From the NCBI GenBank assembly GCA_016181105.1, contig JACOZX010000003.1:1-42578 (forward strand): a stretch of DNA of 42,578 nucleotides, written 5' to 3'. The position numbers and the translations under genes are program-made. Source of the DNA: Candidatus Yanofskybacteria bacterium. GTDB lineage: Bacteria > Patescibacteriota > Minisyncoccia > 2-02-FULL-40-12 > IGHO2-12-FULL-4. Numbering within the stretch: position 1 is the first letter of the stretch; each line of letters starts with the position of its first letter. Positions 1 to 42,352 of this stretch are shown piece by piece. Below the pieces are notes generated by a model. That model saw nothing but the letters and a program-made list of their open reading frames with translations, made no database searches and was not told the DNA's origin.

Positions 1-100
1 ACCAGAGTTCATCCGGTACTACAATACAGAAAGACCGCACATGGGTCTTGAGATGAAAACACCGATAGAAGTGGTCAGAAGCTATTGATTAGAAAACACA
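1..100 (+). mobile_element. 3' end of an IS481/IS3-like insertion sequence (transposase C-terminus, truncated by the window edge)
   Basis: Frame 2 (2..88) reads PEFIRYYNTERPHMGLEMKTPIEVVRSY*, the C-terminal motif of rve/DDE integrase-type transposases. Nt 79-97 (aagctattgattagaaaac) are identical to the reverse complement of 39082-39100, the outer end of the complete IS further downstream. Confidence 0.7.
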
Positions 101-7528: not shown

Positions 7529-7529
7529 G

Positions 7530-7696
7530 CTTGTCGGCAATTTGAACAAAGTGAAAAATTGCCGGTAACAAGCGAAACCCCTCACCACTTTTACTTATGA
7601 ACGGTCAACAATTTTAAGCTTAAAATTGTCCTAGTAAATATCGCTTACCGTTCAATAACAAAAAAGCAAACAAGTGTTGGTAAAAGTGGTGAGGGG
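7530..7696 (+). other. Two consecutive large hairpins between rplW and rplB (7530-7575 and 7578-7696)
   Basis: Stem 1: cttgt-cggcaattt pairs with aaattgccg-gta-acaag. Stem 2: cccctcaccactttta (7578-7593) pairs with taaaagtggtgagggg (7681-7696). Nested inside are ttatgaacggt/accgttcaataa and the palindrome acaattttaagcttaaaattgt (7608-7629). Confidence 0.7.
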
Positions 7697-7759
7697 TGCA
7701 GATATTCTAACAACTCAACGGCGCAATCAAAATTGCTTGTTTCGTTGAGAATAACTAGC

Positions 7760-8587
7760 ATGCCGAAGATTTATAAACCGACAACTGCATCAAGAAGGCA
7801 CATGATGGGATATGATTTCTCGAATTTGTCTAAAGTTGAACCGTTGAAATCTAAAACGAAGTCTTTTAAGCGCGCAATAGGCAGAAACAGCGGCGGCCTG
7901 ATAACAGTCAGGCATAAAGGCGGCGGAGTCAAAAGATTGTACAGGGAAATTGATTTTAGACAGAATAAAATTAATGTTGTTGGCGAAGTCTTTTCAATTG
8001 AGTATGATCCCAACCGGACTTCTCGTATTGCCAGGGTTCATTATGCCGATGGCTACAGAGCCTACATTCTGGCCCCGGAAGGTCTAAAGATTGGCGACAA
8101 AGTTATTACTGCAGACAAAGTTCAGCTTAAACCGGGAAATCGGGCTAAGCTGAAAAACATTCCACAAGGTACGGAAGTCTATAATATCGAGATGTTTCCG
8201 GGCTCAAAAGCCAGTTTAGTTCGTTCTGCCGGTTCAAAAGCCGTGGTGATGTCCAAAGATGCCGGCCGTGTTCAAGTCCAGCTTCCTTCTTCAGAATTAA
8301 GACAATTTTCAGAAAATGCCATGGCCTCAATTGGCAGGCTTTCAAATCAGGAGCACAGTTCTATTGTCATTGGCAAAGCCGGACGTTCCAGACATTTGGG
8401 CGTCAGGCCTTCTGTCAGAGGTTCTGTTATGAATCCTGTTGACCATCCGCATGGCGGAGGTGAAGGTAAGCAGCCGATTGGTTTAACTGGACCCAAGACG
8501 CCTTGGGGCAAGCCGGCGCGCGGAGTCAAGACGAGAAACAAGAAAAAGGGAAGCTGGAGGTTTATAGTCAGGCGCAGAAGTAAATAA
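7760..8587 (+). CDS. rplB: 50S ribosomal protein L2
   Basis: MPKIYKPTTASRRHM...GRNS.G.ITVRHKGGG.KR.YR.IDF...MNPVDHPHGGGEGK. ATG at 7760. Confidence 0.96.
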   Translation: MPKIYKPTTASRRHMMGYDFSNLSKVEPLKSKTKSFKRAIGRNSGGLITVRHKGGGVKRLYREIDFRQNKINVVGEVFSIEYDPNRTSRIARVHYADGYRAYILAPEGLKIGDKVITADKVQLKPGNRAKLKNIPQGTEVYNIEMFPGSKASLVRSAGSKAVVMSKDAGRVQVQLPSSELRQFSENAMASIGRLSNQEHSSIVIGKAGRSRHLGVRPSVRGSVMNPVDHPHGGGEGKQPIGLTGPKTPWGKPARGVKTRNKKKGSWRFIVRRRSK

Positions 8588-8829
8588 ATTAAATATGTCT
8601 AGAAGCATAAAAAAAGCGAGTTTGTCCGGAGCGCAACCGAGCAAAGCGAGGTGAGCACCGCGAGACAAACGAAGTCCCGCTCCATCTGGCATCGAAGTTG
8701 TGAGTTAAGATAGCCAAAGCCGAAGGCGAGCCATCGGTTGGGTAAGGTAAAAACATAACTATGATTCCAGATGGGGCGGCTAGTGACAAAAGTAAGGAGA
8801 GTAAAAATAATTAACCGTCCAATACCAAT
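8588..8829 (+). other. Structured, GC-richer insert between rplB and rpsS, containing a 19-codon decoy ORF (8595-8654) that repeats the rpsS start
   Basis: Long-range 13-pair stem 8677-8689 / 8767-8779, stem 8620-8626 / 8664-8670, and bulged stem 8714-8723 / 8734-8741. ATGTCTAGAAGCATAAAAAAA at 8595 encodes MSRSIKK, as does the real rpsS start at 8830. Confidence 0.6.
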
Positions 8830-9177
8830 ATGAGTCGAAGTATAAAAAAGGGAGTGTTTGTTAATCCGAAATTGCTTAAGAAGTTAGGTAAACTTAGGGT
8901 TGGCGATAAAACTGTGATTAAAACTTGGGCAAGGTCTTCTACTATAACACCGGAGATGATCGGCTTTACTTTCGGTGTTCATAACGGCAAAATTCACATT
9001 CCTGTTTTCGTTACAGAAGACATGGTCGGACACAAGCTGGGAGAATTTTCGCTTACCAGAAAATTTGTCAGACATGGCGGAAGGATGCAGAAGGAGCTGG
9101 AAATAGCCGCCAAGCAAAAGGAAATAGACGCCGCTAAAGCCGCAAAGGCAGAAACAGCCGCGCCTGAAAAGAAATAA
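8830..9177 (+). CDS. rpsS: 30S ribosomal protein S19 (Lys/Ala-rich C-terminal extension)
   Basis: [11 protein letters not shown]...[35 protein letters not shown]. Confidence 0.95.
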
Positions 9178-11272: not shown

Positions 11273-11638
11273 ATGTTACAGATGCGTTCAATAATTGATG
11301 TAGCGGACAACAGCGGAGCCAAAAAAGTTGGCCTTATTAAGGTTTTAGGCGGTACACGCAAAAGATATGCTCAAATCGGGGATATAATTGTTGTTTCCGT
11401 AAAGGTGGCTGAACCGCGCAAGCAGATAAAGAAAAAAGATGTTGTCCGGGCTTTGGTGGTCAGACAGAGACAGCCTTTTCGCCGTCCGGATGGAAGTTAT
11501 ATCAGATTTGACGATAACGCAGTCGTTATTTTAGAGGGTAAGGAGCCAAAAGGCGGTCGTATTTTTGGTCCAATACCAAGAGAGGTTAAAGAAAGAGGTT
11601 ATGATACGATTGCAAGTTTGGCGCAAGAAGTTGTTTGA
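11273..11638 (+). CDS. rplN: 50S ribosomal protein L14
   Basis: [25 protein letters not shown].....A.IGD.IV.SVK...P........VV.A..VR......R.DGS.I.FD.NA.V. TGA stop at 11636-11638. Confidence 0.96.
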
Positions 11639-11644
11639 GCGCAA

Positions 11645-11876
11645 GTTTAGTCAATATTCCTTTTTTCCGAACGCTCGTTTTCCCCAGCGAGGAAAACTTC
11701 GCTCGTATCAGGATGTGGATTCTGTCCAGCAGACTGTCCAGACCCCGCCATTAAACTTACAGCTTATTCGTCCCTATCGGTCCGAATGGGCTGTAAGATT
11801 CAATGGCTATGCAACCTGCCTGTCGGCAGACAGGTCCACAACCTGATGCGTCTCCAAAAAGCAATATCGTCTAAAC
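11645..11876 (+). repeat. 232-nt hairpin element between rplN and rplX, of the same family as 33506-33668
   Basis: Outer stem 11645-11665 / 11856-11876 (18 of 21 pairs). Inner stems 11707-11719 / 11835-11847 (12 of 13), 11746-11751 / 11802-11807, 11756-11763 / 11790-11797, and 11819-11824 / 11829-11834. Shares collinear blocks with the element after lepA (TTTTTCCGRACGCTYG, CCAGCGA, TTCGCT, TGTGGATT, AAAAGCAATA). Confidence 0.7.
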
Positions 11877-11904
11877 TTGCCGGGAAATCATATAAAAAAA
11901 TCAT

Positions 11905-12222
11905 ATGAAAATCAAGAAAAATGACAAAGTAAAAATGCTTTCTGGAAAAGATCGCGGTAAAACCGGCAAGGTAATTTTTGTTTTAAGCAAAAAGGACGAA
12001 GCAAACAGAGTGGTGGTAGAGGGCTTGAACAAAGTGAAGAAACACCAGCGGCCCAAAAAGCAGGGACAGAAAGGTCAGATTGTTTCGGTAGAAAGAGCGG
12101 TTAGCGTTTCTTCTGTTCAGTTGGTTTGTCCAAGTTGCGGTAAGCCGACCAGAATAAGCCAAAAAATTGAAGGCAAAAACAAGACAAGAATTTGTAAAAA
12201 ATGCGGAGCAATGATTAGCTGA
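11905..12222 (+). CDS. rplX: 50S ribosomal protein L24 (with a C-terminal CxxC...CxxC zinc-ribbon extension)
   Basis: MKIKKNDKVK.LSGKD.GKTGKV......K..V.VEG.N..KKH.... followed by CPSCGKPTR...RICKKCG. Confidence 0.93.
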   Translation: MKIKKNDKVKMLSGKDRGKTGKVIFVLSKKDEANRVVVEGLNKVKKHQRPKKQGQKGQIVSVERAVSVSSVQLVCPSCGKPTRISQKIEGKNKTRICKKCGAMIS

Positions 12223-21710: not shown

Positions 21711-22846
21711 AATTCTTAGAAGATTTAGGCAAAAAAGAACTTGACGGTAAAAAAGTTTTTTTGAGGGTTGATTTTGATGTATTTTGATGTTCCGGTTGAG
21801 TCCGGAAAAATTAAGGAAAATTTCCGTATCAAAGCTCAAAAAGAGACCATTGACTATTTGGTAAATAACGGCGCTAAGGTGATGCTGGCCGGCCATATCA
21901 GCTCCACTGATAGTTTCCTTCCGATTACAGAGGAAATAGGAGAAATCATTGGACATACTTTAACTTTAGTGCCTCATTCAGAGTTGAACTCTATCGGCAG
22001 TCTTTTCACAGAATGTCCGGTTTTGCTTTTGGATAACTTGAGACAGGACTCTCGCGAAGAACAAAACGAGAATGAGTTTGCCAGGGGACTGTCTAAGGGT
22101 TTTGACTTTTATGTAAACAATGATTTTGCTGTTTGCCACCGCAATCATGCTTCAGTTTCAGCAATCACCAAACACTTGCCTAGTTTAAAAAAGAAGTAGA
22201 AAATTTATCTAAAGCAATAGAGTTTCCGCCGGAAGGCAAGGTATTGGTTGTGGGCGGAGCTAAAATTTCTACAAAACTGCCGGTGATCAAAAACTTTTTG
22301 GATAAAGCCGAGAAAGTTTTAATCGGCGGAGCGTTGGCCAATAATTTTTTTAAAGCCCGTGGTTTTGATGTCGGCGCTTCGGTGGTTGATGATGCGGCTG
22401 GTTCGGTCTCCCCCAACCTTACGTCCTCCGAGGACGTAAGGTTGGTGTTGCCGGAAGATATTTTGGTTTCAACGGATAAAACCGGAGAAGCAACCCCGGA
22501 GTCGTATCCCGTTAAAAATTTAGATCCAGCCGGCATTATTGTTGATATCGGTCCGAAAACGGCCAAACATTTCGGAGAGATAATAAAAAATTCATCAATG
22601 GTAATTTGGAATGGCCCGATGGGTTTGTCGGAAGTTGACAAATTTGCTGAAGGGACAAAAATAGTTGCCAAAGCTGTTGCCGGAGCTAAATATTCTATTG
22701 TCGGCGGCGGCGATACCATATCAGCCGTTGGCCGTCTGGACTTGCTTGGTAAATTCAGCTATGTTTCTACGGGCGGAGGGGCAATGTTAGCTTTTCTGGC
22801 CGGCAGTAAACTGCCGGGCTTAGAAGCTTTGGGATATTATGATTAA
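21707..22846 (+). CDS. pgk: Phosphoglycerate kinase, reading frame interrupted twice (possible pseudogene, recoding or assembly error)
   Basis: Three collinear PGK segments lie in frames 2, 0 and 2. Segment 1: MKFLEDLGKKELDGKKVFLRVDFDV (21707-21787). Segment 2: DVPVESGKIKENFRIKAQKETIDYL..GAKV.LAGH...CHRNHASV.AI.KHLPS (to 22199). Segment 3: KKEVENLSKAI...VVGGAKISTK......GGALANNF....G........STGGGAMLAFLAG..LPGLEAL. Confidence 0.88.
21771..21790 (+). repeat. Perfect 10-nt tandem duplication (attttgatgt x2) inside pgk codons 22-27
   Basis: Read directly. Removing one copy restores VDFDVPVE in a single frame. Confidence 0.95.
22413..22445. repeat. Perfect 33-bp palindrome inside the pgk coding sequence
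   Basis: The arms ccaaccttacgtcctc and gaggacgtaaggttgg are 16 nt each around a central c. The 33 nt equal exactly 11 codons (PNLTSSEDVRL). The same peptide appears in the antisense ORF. Confidence 0.95.
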
Positions 22847-23890: not shown

Positions 23891-24372
23891 ATCTTGGTAA
23901 GTTGGGTAGCTACCGTGTGGTGTCCGCCTATGCTTTGGCTATGGCGAGACTCTTCGCGGAGGAAAGTCCGAACACTTATTTAATGGCAACTTAAGAGCTA
24001 TTAAAAACAGTAGCGGGTAACGCCCGTCGGCAGACGAGGTGTTTATACTGGTGGCTAAACCTGCCTGTGTAAACTTTGCCTTACAAATGCCAGAGGTGCG
24101 AGCAGAGACGTCTCAAGGCGCAAGCCTGGAGACACCCTTACGGGGTGAGCTTTGTTGGTAACAACGAAGGTGAAACGGCCAAATCCTTACTGGAGTGCAA
24201 GTACAGCGTTTCTCCACAGGCTCAGGATAAGTTTTCCTGTTGACTGTTGCGAGGTTCGAAAAGTTAGTACGCAGAAGTCCCGAAGTAATGAAGGACTAGA
24301 TTCAAACGGTAACGTTTGAACCAGATAAATTGCTACACAAACACAGAATTCGGCTTATAGACTTGCCAAGAT
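23891..24372 (+). ncRNA. rnpB: RNase P RNA (bacterial type)
   Basis: GGAGGAAAGTCCGAACAC (CR-I/P4 5' strand) lies near 23959-23976. AGATAAAT...ACAGAATTCGGCTTAT (CR-IV/V, P4 3' strand) lies near 24324-24358. Terminal P1 pairing is atcttggtaagt (23891-23902) with acttgccaagat (24361-24372). Confidence 0.9.
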
Positions 24373-24375
24373 ATT

Positions 24376-24428
24376 AAAAACCACCCCTCACCACTTTTAA
24401 GAAAAGAAAGTGGTGAGGGGTGGTTTTT
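24376..24428 (+). terminator. Strong hairpin terminator after rnpB
   Basis: aaaaaccacccctcaccactttt (24376-24398) pairs with aaagtggtgaggggtggttttt (24407-24428). It is flanked by an A-tract and a T-tract, so it is potentially bidirectional. Confidence 0.85.
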
Positions 24429-24465
24429 AATTGAAAAATTACTTTTTTTGTTATAAGGTTAACCC

Positions 24466-31296: not shown

Positions 31297-31488
31297 ATGA
31301 AAACGGAAAGTTTTAACAAAAAATCAAATGAAGTTATGATTCTTCTGTTGGAGCAGCTTAAAGAGGTGAACAACAAATTAAGCAGGTTTTTCAAGCTAAT
31401 ACCAGAAGAAAGTCTGAAAGGTTACAAAAATCGTGAACAGATAAAGAAAGCGCATCGCAACGCTCTCGATTTATATCCGTATGAATAG
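31297..31488 (+). CDS. Putative antitoxin (partner of the RelE/ParE-like gene)
   Basis: 63-aa ORF overlapping the downstream toxin-like gene by 8 nt. Assigned by context only. Confidence 0.4.
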   Translation: MKTESFNKKSNEVMILLLEQLKEVNNKLSRFFKLIPEESLKGYKNREQIKKAHRNALDLYPYE

Positions 31489-31741
31489 TATGGTTATTTT
31501 TAAAACCAAAGATTTTGAAAAAGAACTCAAAAAATTGCCCTCCGAGATAAAAAGTTTGTTTAAAAAACAGAAAACTACCCTTGAGGATAATTGGCTTGAC
31601 CCCAGGCTCCACACCAAGAAAATAAAAGAAATACCAGGAGTTTACTCATTTAGAATCACCCGACAGTACCGGGTGCTTTTTTATTTTAGTAAAAATAATG
31701 CTATTTTTTTCAGCATCGGACATAGAAAAGATATTTACTAA
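31481..31741 (+). CDS. RelE/ParE-superfamily toxin-like protein
   Basis: 86 aa. ...F.K..KKL........K.........P.LH.KK.K....VYSFRIT.QYRVLF.......I.F..IGHRKDIY fits the RelE/ParE (plasmid stabilisation) pattern. Confidence 0.6.
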   Translation: MNSMVIFKTKDFEKELKKLPSEIKSLFKKQKTTLEDNWLDPRLHTKKIKEIPGVYSFRITRQYRVLFYFSKNNAIFFSIGHRKDIY

Positions 31742-33505: not shown

Positions 33506-33668
33506 GTTGGTTTTGCGTTTATTGCTTTTTCCGGACGCTTGCTCACCAGCGATTCGCTGCGCTCGCTCTGGCCTGTGGATTTTGCTTGCAGTGAAAAATT
33601 ATACTGCTCGCAAACCATGCAATCACACAGTCCAGAGCGCCCACAAAAGCAATAAACGCAAAACCAAC
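33506..33668 (+). repeat. 163-nt hairpin element starting 2 nt after the lepA stop, of the same family as 11645-11876
   Basis: A perfect 24-bp outer stem: gttggttttgcgtttattgctttt (33506-33529) pairs with aaaagcaataaacgcaaaaccaac (33645-33668). Inner pairings: cgctctgg.ctgtg with cacag.ccagagcg, and tttgcttgcag with ctgctcgcaaa. There is a side hairpin cagcg-att-cgctg. Confidence 0.8.
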
Positions 33669-34158: not shown

Positions 34159-34241
34159 GTCTCGCCTTTGCGAGTTTTTGCGGGCTTCGCCCGCCGAAGC
34201 TCGTTTCGGCGAGCGAAGGCGGGCGTCGTATAGTGGAAAAA

Positions 34242-39078: not shown

Positions 39079-40022
39079 AACGTTTTCTAATCAATAGCTT
39101 GGAAACACTTCCTCATTAATATTTGGTTTGGCGTCTGCAATTTTAATCCAAAATGCAGACGTTTTTCATTGTAATACGGAATATATTTCTTGATGGCAGA
39201 ATTTAAATCTTTCACTGTCCTCGACACCTTGTCTAAGCATTCTTCCTGGATAGTCCGATTGAATCTTTCTAGATGAGCATTGTCATTAGGTCTCCTGACT
39301 CTTGAGTGTCTGTGTATGGAGCATATATGCTCGCTGAATTTCCTTGAAAACTCTGACCCATGGTCGCTTTGCAATACCTTGAAAGAGAAGAGGGCGATCT
39401 TCTCAGCTTGCCGGACAAAATTTAAAGCGGTTCGTGTGTCAGACTTCCTGTATGCTCTGGCATAAGCCCATCGGGAATAGACATCAAGAAGGGTAAAGAC
39501 GTATACTCTTTGACCTTCCGGAGTTAGGAGATGGATTGTGTCGATTTGCACCAAATCTCCTTGTTTTTCGACATTAGGACGTAGCGTTGGAGCATGATAG
39601 CGTTTCCAAGGCGATCTTTTCTTGAGAAGATTAAATCTGTCTAGGGTTCTTTTGACCGAAGACAGAGATGTCTTAATTCCCTCGTTAATTAATTCTTGGT
39701 ATATTACCTCGGCGCTCCTCTTAATGGTCTGTCTCTTTAAGACAATATTAGCGATCATTTCTTTGGTTAGTTGTTTGGGGTGATTATTGGGTCTTGAAGA
39801 AAGTGTCGGTATTGGCCTGTATCCGTATATTTTAGCCTTCTTAACCCATTTGGTTATTGTTCCCGGACTGACTCCTACATATCTGGCCACCTTTCTTACT
39901 CCCCAGCCCCTTCTTACTAGGTCTGCCGCGTCTCGACGAACACGAGGCAGATATGGATTCTTTGTGTATGACATGCCTTTCATTTTACATAAAGGGTGTT
40001 TCCAAGCTATTGAACCATAACG
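39079..40022 (-). mobile_element. Complete IS481-family-like insertion sequence (about 944 bp) with a 6-bp target-site duplication
   Basis: Imperfect terminal inverted repeats with an identical 18-nt core: tcaatagcttggaaacac (39091-39108) pairs with gtgtttccaagctattga (39996-40013). TGGCTA is present at 39073-39078 and 40023-40028. Confidence 0.8.
39087..39983 (-). CDS. IS481-family transposase (HTH plus rve/DDE integrase core)
   Basis: 298 aa. N-terminal HTH (VRKVARYVGVSPGTITKWV), then LVQIDT....(D)...VYSRWAYA...QSDHGSEF (D)...RPNDNAHLERFNRT.QEE (E), and YYNEKRLH.GL...TP. Confidence 0.88.
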   Translation of the reverse strand: MKGMSYTKNPYLPRVRRDAADLVRRGWGVRKVARYVGVSPGTITKWVKKAKIYGYRPIPTLSSRPNNHPKQLTKEMIANIVLKRQTIKRSAEVIYQELINEGIKTSLSSVKRTLDRFNLLKKRSPWKRYHAPTLRPNVEKQGDLVQIDTIHLLTPEGQRVYVFTLLDVYSRWAYARAYRKSDTRTALNFVRQAEKIALFSFKVLQSDHGSEFSRKFSEHICSIHRHSRVRRPNDNAHLERFNRTIQEECLDKVSRTVKDLNSAIKKYIPYYNEKRLHFGLKLQTPNQILMRKCFQAID

Positions 40023-40801: not shown

Positions 40802-40827
40802 AGAGCGTTAACACGCTCTTTTGTTTT
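40802..40827 (+). terminator. Rho-independent terminator after the CYTH gene
   Basis: agagcg ttaaca cgctct followed by tttgtttt. Its 3' half lies inside direct repeat 1. Confidence 0.7.
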
Positions 40828-40847
40828 AAATTATTTTAGTTAAGATG
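40809..40847 (+). repeat. Direct repeat copy 1 (39 nt, identical to 42232-42270)
   Basis: taacacgctcttttgttttaaattattttagttaagatg, checked base by base against copy 2. Confidence 0.95.
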
Positions 40848-40952
40848 AAACTCTTACCCCAATACAACTTCGTCTCTACTGGTGGTGGGGCAATGCTAGT
40901 ATTCCTGGCGGGGGAAGAATTGCCAGGGTTAAAAGCTTTGGAAACAGTCTAA
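40845..40952 (+). pseudogene. pgk: 3'-terminal fragment of a second, diverged phosphoglycerate kinase gene
   Basis: It translates to MKLLPQYNFVSTGGGAMLVFLAGEELPGLKALETV*. This is collinear with the C-terminus of the resident pgk (LDLLGKFSYVSTGGGAMLAFLAGSKLPGLEALGYYD*). No upstream PGK sequence is present. Confidence 0.8.
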
Positions 40953-41246: not shown

Positions 41247-41468
41247 ATGATAGTAGGAGTAGGAGTGTGGGTAGAAGTAAGAGGAATCGCAACGCATTAT
41301 GATTCCACTAAAAAAATGAATTTACCCGCCCCGGCCAGGGGCCAGCGGGGAGTGGTTGACTCCAACCACCCCAGTGGGATGGTCGGAGTCAGGTTTTCGA
41401 AGTTTGTAGGGTACGGCTATCAGCCGTATTTCTACTACTTCAAAGACAGCGACCTCATTGAGTTGTAG
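41247..41468 (+). CDS. Hypothetical 73-aa protein (island ORF1; possibly a small beta-rich/SH3-like fold)
   Basis: The ATG is preceded by gggagag. GC-richer codon usage than the rest of the window. No family recognised. Confidence 0.5.
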   Translation: MIVGVGVWVEVRGIATHYDSTKKMNLPAPARGQRGVVDSNHPSGMVGVRFSKFVGYGYQPYFYYFKDSDLIEL

Positions 41469-41669
41469 GGGTCGCAACGTCATCACGAAGGGAGACTCGT
41501 CGCAAGACAACATCTCCCTTCCAATCCTTTGTTTGAGAATCAGAAATGATTCGTAAACAAAGTAGTTGGAAATAGTAGTCCTTTGAATGAAAAATGCTGG
41601 CGTGGAGGAATAGTTCTGAAGCGCCAGCCCGTAGCCGAGTTTGACTCGGCGCCCTTGAAAGGAGGGCTT

Positions 41670-42062
41670 ATGAAGTTTGCGAAATTAAGATTAGTTGGAA
41701 ATCGATTGTTTGAGGATACCGGTGAGGTATCCAACCGCACAAGAAGTTATGAGTTGGGAGAGAAGTACAACGGGCGGCTCTACGAGGAGGGGACCGAACC
41801 TTCTCTCCAGAACCACCGGATTACAGTGTGGAGAGGAAGTTTTTGGGAAGTTTGTGTGGAAGGTAGACTCGTCCTGCTTTCCGTCCAGGGCGGTCGCTTG
41901 GTAAAAATTGTGAAACTCGGTCCCAAGACCGAGCCAGTGTTCACCAGCAGGGCAACCGGCGAATACGTAAGAGAAAGCGATCATGCCCCAATGGGGTACC
42001 CCGATACCGAGCAAGGCCGTAAAGCATGGGAGGATTCAGTGCGGGTGGAAAAAGTCGAGTAG
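41670..42062 (+). CDS. Hypothetical 130-aa protein (island ORF2)
   Basis: The ATG at 41670 is preceded by aaaggaggg (strong SD). The longer 41583 ORF start lacks an RBS and runs through hairpins. No family recognised. Confidence 0.5.
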   Translation: MKFAKLRLVGNRLFEDTGEVSNRTRSYELGEKYNGRLYEEGTEPSLQNHRITVWRGSFWEVCVEGRLVLLSVQGGRLVKIVKLGPKTEPVFTSRATGEYVRESDHAPMGYPDTEQGRKAWEDSVRVEKVE

Positions 42063-42231: not shown

Positions 42232-42270
42232 TAACACGCTCTTTTGTTTTAAATTATTTTAGTTAAGATG
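42232..42270 (+). repeat. Direct repeat copy 2 (39 nt), immediately upstream of tRNA-Gln; probably contains the tRNA promoter
   Basis: Identical to 40809-40847. A TAAGAT -10-like hexamer (42264-42269) lies about 9 nt before the tRNA 5' end. Confidence 0.9.
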
Positions 42271-42278
42271 GAATTAAT

Positions 42279-42352
42279 TGTCGGGTCTGCTAGTGGTAGG
42301 CATCCGCGCTCTGAACGCGGCAACCTTGGTTCGAATCCAAGCCCGACAGCCA
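42279..42352 (+). tRNA. tRNA-Gln (anticodon CUG), CCA encoded
   Basis: Manual cloverleaf: acceptor TGTCGGG/CCCGACA (U1-A72), D arm TGCT-AGTGGTA-GGCA, anticodon arm CCGCG-CTCTGAA-CGCGG, variable CAAC, T arm CTTGG-TTCGAAT-CCAAG, discriminator G, CCA. Confidence 0.88.

Follow-up and report, generated by a model that had tools for sequence, protein, structure and literature searches.

The 42,578-nt stretch of a Candidatus Yanofskybacteria genome analysed here (assembly GCA_016181105.1, contig JACOZX010000003.1, positions 1 to 42,578; hereafter the window) carries two long structured inserts, one between the ribosomal-protein genes rplN and rplX (copy a, 11641-11880, + strand) and one after lepA (copy b, 33506-33668, + strand). 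We read both, with a probability of roughly 60%, as copies of an interspersed palindromic element, non-autonomous and carried by Paceibacteria within the Candidate Phyla Radiation (CPR), of the kind represented by repetitive extragenic palindromes (REPs), REPINs and miniature inverted-repeat transposable elements (MITEs). More than 70 copies were found in genomes and metagenomes of Paceibacteria (Candidatus Yanofskybacteria and relatives), and they share a closed three-way junction that is real and conserved. The family is probably selected as folded DNA and passively co-transcribed, and the insert looks more like a selfish element than a regulator of the genes on either side of it.

Members of the family are 125-240 bp long. 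An outer stem of 14-27 bp (P1) joins the two ends of the element and leads into junction J1/2. P2, a hairpin at the side, has a 7-nt CCWGCGA loop and a C-G closing pair. P3 and P4 make up a co-axial arm in which (A)ACCATGC stays unpaired 3' of the P4 hairpin, and the closed fold is completed by the 3' strands of P3 and then P1. Sequence is kept in the loops, the bulge and the junctions, and the stems, P1 and P2 foremost, change fast and always by Watson-Crick compensation. A search pattern made up of the P2 loop and the ACCATGC motif, which recovered three of three expected local copies with no false positives, matched at least 120 stretches of the metagenome collection, the hits coming from CPR-rich groundwater of the Hainich or Rifle type; among the matches listed, P2 stems reached 5 bp or more in 66, of which 49 (45 of them unique) also had a long P1. 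From an alignment of 46 copies, RNAalifold derived a predicted structure of P1, P2 and P3 in which every one of the 33 pairs shows compensatory changes. The covariance model built from this alignment (R1) retrieved 67 non-redundant copies at E <= 2e-8, adding copies in loci L012, L010, L014 and L021 and in several metagenome contigs. Further copies were located behind adk in L009, upstream of tuf in L010 and at the end of a contig in L022.

Over the 67 copies, 87.0% of cells are paired, compared with 50.8% in shuffled alignments and at most 45% when the partners are slid, and the covariation score is 0.775, compared with 0.195 and at most 0.163, respectively; since the 67-copy alignment was fitted to the model, these values somewhat favour the structure. 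Double-sided changes are seen in 33 of 33 model pairs, and within P2, where 95.8% of cells are paired, all six pairs covary. It is on the pairing and covariation relative to the controls that the reality and conservation of the structure rest. The original prediction, made from the letters of the window alone, had noted that the paired regions of its two copies differ in sequence while staying complementary, and had proposed a covariance-model search as the way to check it; the first of these now holds across the family, and the search brought both further copies and covariation in a larger alignment. The size of the alignment mattered, in that MAFFT and RNAalifold applied to six copies recovered P2 alone. 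Two further searches were set aside: a loose two-motif regular-expression scan gave 888 chance matches and was uninformative, and the pattern TTTTTCCGRACN{9,11}CCWGCGA gave 11 matches in viral contigs, all in unrelated coding sequence.

Covariation in every helix, combined with sequence kept in the loops, the bulge and the junctions, is what a functional RNA classically shows. The main rival reading is that the family is a new class of structured non-coding RNA with several diverged paralogues per genome, either freed from operon transcripts (for example by RNase III at a P1 of 20 or more bp) or transcribed on its own, and binding a protein through the P2 loop and the ACCATGC bulge. The length of P1 should suffice for RNase III, going by what is established for the enzyme, and the copies within a genome are old and divergent, which, with the conservation of loops and junctions in place of the termini, gives this reading its strongest support. 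However, no Rfam family matches: with Rfam 15 the window gave no match at the gathering score, and nothing credible was obtained for copies a and b (E <= 10) or for two L012 copies (E <= 5), the hits being chance fragments of THF-II, Moco-II and miRNA models only. Further evidence against an RNA class, from the distribution and the orientation of the copies, is described below; taken together it makes this explanation unlikely.

Copies a and b are about 50-55% identical and BLAST finds only a marginal similarity between them (14 nt at 93%, E = 6-8), so that their homology rests on the covariance model. Copy a, which was left out when the model was built, was matched at 11648-11874 with 46.1 bits (1.34 Mb searched, E = 4e-9); for copy b, a member of the training set, the score is 105.8 bits. 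The proposed homology of the two is thus confirmed, and the collinear blocks said to be shared with 33506-33668 are all present. With filters off, no other site in the window matches the family model, the remaining hits being simple hairpins of at most 19 bits. A 91-codon and a 93-codon open reading frame (ORF) run through the two window copies.

The stop of rplN at 11638 and the start of rplX at 11905 enclose the predicted 266-nt spacer in an otherwise tight operon. Copy a is supported by the inverted repeat, by fold z-scores and by the covariance-model match, and all the features described below lie on the + strand. The arms of P1 (11641-11665 and 11856-11880) are paired at 22 of 25 positions (88% complementary), slightly longer at 25 nt than the 21 bp originally claimed, and P1 pairs covary family-wide. 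Junction J1/2 (11666-11676, TCCGAACGCTC), aligned to the model consensus, carries the family motif TCCGRAC, and the same block is present in copy b and in L010. The P2 hairpin (11677-11697), found by hairpin scan, has a 7-bp stem and the 7-nt loop CCAGCGA (11684-11690). The two strands of P3 (11704-11719, CGTATCAGGATGTGGA, and 11835-11850, TCCACAACCTGATGCG) were placed by direct reading, by the minimum free energy (MFE) fold and by model alignment; direct reading of 11707-11719 against 11835-11847 gives 12 pairs and one A·A mismatch, and the helix shows covariation with its counterparts, CTCTGG/CCAGAG (copy b) and TTGCGG/CCGCAG (L010). The P4 arm (11747-11807, GCCATTAAACTTACAGC...GCTGTAAGATTCAATGGC), supported by the MFE fold and direct reading, contains a stem of 11747-11752 with 11802-11807 and a perfect stem, 11756-11763 / 11790-11797. 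It is followed by CTATGCAA (11807-11814), a degenerate counterpart of the unpaired ACCATGC(AA), which occupies the same place relative to P4 as in copy b, L010, L012 and L022. A small hairpin at 11721-11742, seen in the MFE fold, occurs in copy a alone as part of a 108-nt insertion relative to the model, and an extra hairpin at 11815-11834 (CCTGCCTGTCGGCAGACAGG; MFE fold and direct reading) has a perfect stem, 11819-11824 / 11829-11834. Every inner stem of the original prediction is therefore present, one of them having been placed a base too far upstream (at 11746-11751). Folding of the whole spacer gave -100 kcal/mol on the + strand, compared with -58.7 ± 4.5 for shuffles (z = -9.2), and -118.3 kcal/mol on the - strand (z = -11.6).

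Copy b lies between the lepA stop (33504) and the ATG (33681) of a 33-codon membrane ORF. Its outer stem (33506-33529 / 33645-33668) is a perfect 24 bp and its fold has z = -8.4 relative to shuffles. The CCAGCGA motif is at 33546-33552, where the P2 stem is degenerate, with non-standard P2 pairs in the model alignment. The 5' strand of P3 (33564-33581, CGCTCTGGCCTGTGGATT) pairs with 33621-33639 (AATCACACAGTCCAGAGCG), and between them lie the P4 hairpin (33582-33613, TTGCTTGCAGTG..ATTATACTGCTCGCAA), which contains a 17-mer identical to L001:9918-9934, and the unpaired ACCATGC (33614-33620), identified by direct reading and by the same motif in metagenome copies. The P4 module of copy b recurs in many of these copies.

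Presence or absence at orthologous sites, along with the same element in unrelated contexts, is the mark of a mobile element, and both are found here. The window's L24 is 87% identical to a protein of a Yanofskybacteria metagenome-assembled genome (MAG), and the operon is without L30. In the closest genome, L001 (GCA_016185525.1), a structured insert of 241 nt lies between rplN and rplX, with an outer stem similar to that of copy a, a different interior and the 17-mer shared with the lepA copy; it scores 26.7 bits with model R1. In the next relatives (L004, L008, L009, L010 and L011) the rplN-rplX spacer is 1-18 nt, with a 15-nt spacer among close relatives, and the site is empty. Recognisable relatives of the family reappear at this site in the more distant Yanofskybacteria L012 and in L026, a Tagabacteria MAG, so that it holds three subtypes (window/L001, L012 and L026). 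Copy b is a clean insertion: at the lepA site, the spacer to the downstream ORF is 176 nt in the window and 1 nt in L218 (LepA 89% identical), where the stop codon, one base and the ATG of the same small membrane ORF follow each other directly. Loci L219-L221 are likewise without an insert after lepA, and the distant contig L226 has a weak family member there (29 bits).

The occurrence of four rplN-rplX copies in different lineages (the window, L001, L012 and L026), with other copies near translation genes (lepA, tuf, adk), could be taken to indicate a ribosomal-protein autoregulatory leader, in which an rRNA mimic controls rplX and the genes downstream. However, most copies flank unrelated genes, one third of them are antisense, three different subtypes occupy the rplN-rplX site and the nearest relatives lack the element there. 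Context and orientation thus largely refute a leader, which we consider highly improbable. Mimicry of 5S rRNA, suggested by the words CCAUGC, CCGAAC and AGCGCC, was also rejected: their order is wrong and there is no 5S model match.

A further explanation, which fits either origin of the family, is that copies are kept because they serve the host as punctuation, as an RNase III processing site, 3' stabiliser or attenuator in polycistronic mRNA that uncouples cistrons (for example by splitting S10-spc after rplN). In its favour, 15 of about 45 Patescibacteria loci have a long rplN-rplX spacer (77-323 nt) that forms a hairpin, the sequences being unrelated, which suggests that a hairpin as such is favoured at this position; moreover, both strands of copy a fold very stably and would give a long double-stranded RNA stem either way. 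Against it, the closest relatives manage with spacers of 1-18 nt, P1 of copies a and b is not followed by a terminator-like T-run, and the strand-specific conservation of the loops in both orientations is left unexplained. We regard a punctuation role as the reason for the family's maintenance as quite improbable.

Hairpin inserts appear to have a hot spot at the rplN-rplX site. Besides the window, L001, L012 and L026, unrelated long hairpins were seen there in eleven other Patescibacteria loci, and spacers of 77-323 nt with one long hairpin and unrelated sequences were recorded in L013, L016, L018, L021, L023, L025, L027, L029, L037, L038, L039, L041 and L045. Those of L016, L023 and L041 have a common outer stem (CCCGTTAGAAAT) around different interiors.

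Turnover of the element is also evident beyond the two window sites. Copies that are 90-95% identical sit in unrelated flanks; in these pairs the core is near-identical, and the differences, all of them fully compensated, affect the outer 8-16 bp of P1 and, in one pair, the whole P2 stem. We considered whether the outer stem could be duplicated flanking target DNA (GCAAGTTTGG in rplN resembles GCAAGTTTAG in P1), but over 48 copies the arm-flank matches (7.0-7.4 of 12) equal the swapped-flank control (7.1). As this test is negative and the P1 arms are recognisably homologous within a subtype, P1 is part of the element. At one orthologous site, with homologous flanking proteins, the element lies in opposite orientations in L125 and L146, and at another L158 and L195 carry different subtypes. 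After the rplP stop, L012 has a family member (L012:8476-8633), L013, whose RplP is 93% identical, has a different long-stem element (L013:8329-8519), and L018 has only 33 nt. Several copies or subtypes are found on single contigs (L012, L146, L155, L210, L110, L115 and L010), and contigs with two copies usually carry different subtypes at 35-72% identity; one pair in L155 that is 91% identical belongs to a larger duplicated segment. Copy number in these partial genomes is two in the 42.6-kb window and up to two per contig elsewhere, with within-contig identities of 35-91%. For a functional RNA class, both the presence and absence among close relatives and the differences of subtype and orientation at orthologous sites are difficult to accommodate.

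Copies sit in very short intergenic spacers of compact operons and usually start a few bases past the upstream stop codon, as expected of the dispersed family immediately 3' of genes that had been suggested as one possibility. The proteins encoded beside the copies, 112 in all, matched 118 Pfam families, among them HSP70, TGT, tRNA synthetases and RNase Y, and share no common function. Taking both neighbours as the reference, 25 copies run sense and 13 antisense, and a further eight lie between convergent and eight between divergent genes. The preference for the sense orientation would suit an RNA; however, about one third of the copies in co-directional gene pairs (13 of 38) are antisense, and in three of the antisense copies the spacers are no more than 13 nt on both sides, which leaves no room for a promoter.

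The base pairs themselves bear on the nature of the selected molecule. Among 2099 cells there are 70 G·U and 90 A·C, so that G·U is no commoner, and in the fast-evolving P2 only 2 of 400 cells are G·U. In sense copies the counts are 19 G·U and 33 A·C, and in antisense copies 19 and 14. The absence of a G·U excess even in sense copies indicates that the wobble tolerance of an RNA is lacking on the transcribed strand, and selection specifically on an RNA fold is accordingly not supported. On the element strand, pyrimidine-pyrimidine mismatches outnumber purine-purine mismatches by about 7:1 in both orientation classes, an asymmetry that can also be counted in favour of an RNA class. Together with the strand-specific loops, it suggests that one particular strand of the element matters, whatever the direction of host transcription. 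Empty sites, both orientations, unrelated flanks and the turnover of subtype and orientation make a REP/MITE-like family the best fitting of the four options that the original prediction had offered.

At the ends of the element the junction consensus is weak, TC|P1...P1'|TC (58 copies). The tetranucleotide CGCT is enriched in the 12-nt flanks, where it occurs in 9 of 58 copies on the left and 14 of 58 on the right against a background of 3.7%. Abutting direct repeats are absent from 33 of the 58 copies, 1-2 bp long in 20 and an exact 6 bp in two. It should be noted that the CGCT of the flanks is complementary to the AGCG of the P2 loop, which we regard as a lead only. It can be imagined that pairing of this kind, by which the invariant P2 loop would recognise an insertion or target site, makes the family a new class of folded nucleic-acid element, either RNA or single-stranded DNA, that is CPR-specific and tolerated even in a ribosomal-protein operon, being a guide-like, self-targeting mobile element or a protein-binding RNA; we think this speculative and rather unlikely. 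A pseudoknot between the P2 loop and a downstream TCGCT would, by contrast, appear to be geometrically implausible.

If the family is an interspersed element selected as folded DNA, the relevant fold would be that of one DNA strand, for instance when single-stranded at the replication fork, and not that of the host transcript. A trans-acting enzyme would recognise the folded strand through the conserved loops, and a HUH/Y1 transposase of the RayT type (REP-associated tyrosine transposase), such as the clade encodes, would be the most plausible mobiliser. An element inserted in an operon would be co-transcribed passively, and the insert may be tolerated because the closed P1 stem holds the flanking stop and start codons close to each other. 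In the transcript P1 would be a natural substrate of RNase III.

Several observations weigh against this interpretation. Target-site duplications are weak and inconsistent, and there is the sense bias already mentioned. Copies within a genome are mostly divergent, and nothing points to a recent burst. Conservation is highest in loops and junctions and not at the termini, a pattern expected of a functional folded nucleic acid and unusual for MITEs; the near-invariance of CCWGCGA and ACCATGC is partly a matter of ascertainment, as both motifs were in the metagenome search pattern, with copies found by other routes carrying both. Finally, no mobilising enzyme is linked to the family: neither the window nor some 0.7 Mb of element-bearing contigs contains a Y1 gene, and the hairpins that flank RayT-like genes in the clade are unlike the three-way junction, scoring 13-23 bits with the family model.

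The enzymology for REP-type elements nevertheless exists in this clade of Patescibacteria, and its connection with the family is an inference. In L218 a 206-residue Y1/HUH protein (PF01797) is encoded just upstream of lepA. It matches NCBIfam NF047646 (REP-associated tyrosine transposase) with E = 8e-13, below the curated cut-off, and has 946 homologues in Patescibacteria at E < 1e-25, some of them named RayT by the Joint Genome Institute (JGI). One RayT-type Y1 gene is present in the genome of the closest relative that carries the counterpart of copy a. The RayT-like genes of L218, L222, L223, L224 and L226 have near-identical perfect simple hairpins on both sides (TTACAATGGGCAYC...), those beside the L218 gene (L218:833-1453) being two practically identical perfect hairpins of 40 nt each, and this arrangement in five contigs is the classic one for RAYT. 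The hairpin was found neither in the window nor in any other locus searched. The RayT-lepA neighbourhood recurs in L226, and this synteny suggests a stable gene. Where L218 carries the RayT-like gene, the window has a RelE/ParE-like toxin-antitoxin pair: the two genes occupy 31297-31741, between a DUF4012 gene and lepA, and the product of the second is, judged by its sequence, a RelE/ParE-like toxin.

The window contains a single transposase gene, of the rve/DDE type (39087-39983, - strand). No partner insertion sequence was found for the family, and the ends of the rve gene, compared by eye only, are unlike P1. The sequence at the 3' end of that gene (39082-39111) is an 87% inverted repeat of window positions 68-97, 39 kb away, which may be a second insertion-sequence end. 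A tblastn search of 2.1 Mb of loci with ISHp608 TnpA gave no matches, and neither a TnpA nor a TnpB gene lies near family copies (in flanks, window or element-bearing contigs).

Interspersed extragenic palindromes are a known kind of element, and comparison with described systems suggests that the architecture of the family and its CPR host are the new part. REP/REPIN-RAYT systems of Proteobacteria resemble it in being interspersed extragenic palindromes in short spacers at gene ends or within operons, in both orientations, in which hairpin structure and not sequence alone is maintained, and RayT-type Y1/HUH proteins are encoded in the clade. However, REPs (~20-40 nt) and REPINs (~70-110 nt) are simple hairpins, whereas the family has a 125-240-nt three-way junction with conserved loops and a bulged arm; its copies within a genome are far more divergent than typical REPINs; and in REP systems the RAYT gene is flanked by the very repeats that it mobilises, whereas the CPR RayT genes are flanked by another hairpin family. 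Correia elements (Neisseria), ERIC/IRU (enterobacteria), bcr1 (Bacillus cereus group) and RUP/BOX (pneumococcus) are likewise non-coding, 100-200 bp long, intergenic and co-transcribed, with terminal inverted repeats and long hairpins, and Correia RNA is cut by RNase III. In these elements the terminal inverted repeats are conserved and target duplications defined (TA for Correia), whereas in the CPR family variability is greatest in the outermost stem, duplications are weak and it is the internal loops and junctions that are conserved. Inverted termini are thus present but vary between copies, in place of the shared terminal inverted repeats of a MITE, and even copies with 90-95% identity elsewhere differ in their outermost 8-14 bp.

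The palindromes and HUH substrates derived from IS200/IS605 appear comparable in other respects, namely a single folded strand with hairpins and short motifs, a conserved junction sequence (CGCT/TC in the family), little or no target duplication and an orientation independent of transcription. They differ in having separate subterminal hairpins at the left and right ends, whereas the ends of the CPR element pair with each other. Integron attC sites also lie directly after stop codons and also conserve a folded single strand with variable stems and few fixed bases. However, attC sites are 57-141 nt long, have R''/R' core sites and form cassette arrays through an integrase, whereas the neighbours of the family are housekeeping and ribosomal-protein genes; no integrase was found among the flanking genes, and R''/R' core sites were not searched for. 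A full-text search of the literature on repeats or non-coding RNAs in Patescibacteria, Parcubacteria and CPR found no such element described. To our knowledge, a three-way junction with conserved loops, hyper-variable Watson-Crick-compensated stems and a CPR host has not been described for REP, REPIN, Correia, ERIC or bcr1.

The window holds other structured inserts. The region 8616-8800, put forward originally as a third copy, has no match to the family model and belongs instead to a second, unrelated family, being related to window 7529-7760 and to L001:7634-7861. Members of this second family lie between rplB and rpsS (8588-8829; fold z = -5.7) and between rplW and rplB (7529-7760) in the window, and between rplV and rpsC in L001 (7634-7861), with 3' tails that are 88% identical. 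Upstream of the insert ahead of rpsS, window positions 8594-8630 are a decayed copy of the first ~12 codons of rpsS, 93% identical to the rpsS starts of relatives. The working start at 8830 (8830-8866) specifies MSRSIKK as well, the differences (TCT to AGT among them) being all synonymous, and it seems that the insert arrived with, or created, a replacement 5' end of rpsS.

Elsewhere in the window, a bacterial class A RNase P RNA (23894-24373, + strand) scores 68.8 bits, below the Rfam gathering score of 100; it measures 480 nt against a 367-nt model, with about 110 nt of insertions, and is followed by a perfect 25-bp hairpin (24373-24431). Repeats comprise a 9-nt tandem repeat (TTAGAACAA, 702-752), a 42-nt repeat at 98% identity (40809-40850 and 42232-42273, the second copy just upstream of tRNA-Gln at 42279-42352) and an 81-nt repeat at 73% identity (22752-22832 and 40861-40941). 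At its C terminus, L24 (11905-12222) has a CxxC...CxxC extension that resembles a zinc ribbon and is common to its close homologues. Two GC-rich intergenic regions (34160-34240 and 41280-41680) fold 3-5 standard deviations below the GC-corrected window mean and match none of the models used.

Genomes of CPR/Patescibacteria are about 1 Mb in size, tightly packed and usually regarded as repeat-poor. The element described here may be a substrate of the RayT-type transposases, as yet uncharacterised, that occur widely in the clade, and were the guide-like reading of the P2 loop true, the family would not be junk. With its abundant Watson-Crick-only covariation, its conserved loops and its copies in either orientation, the family offers a clean test of how selection on RNA structure can be told from selection on DNA structure, and the covariance model can be used to mask inserts in MAGs, thereby avoiding false ORFs and mis-called gene starts. 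Folded inserts of 125-240 bp occur repeatedly between essential, translationally coupled genes (rplN|rplX, rplP|rpmC, rplB|rpsS, after lepA and dnaK), and their recurrence there indicates that large structured insertions are tolerated, or exploited, by these genomes in the operons that they express most highly.

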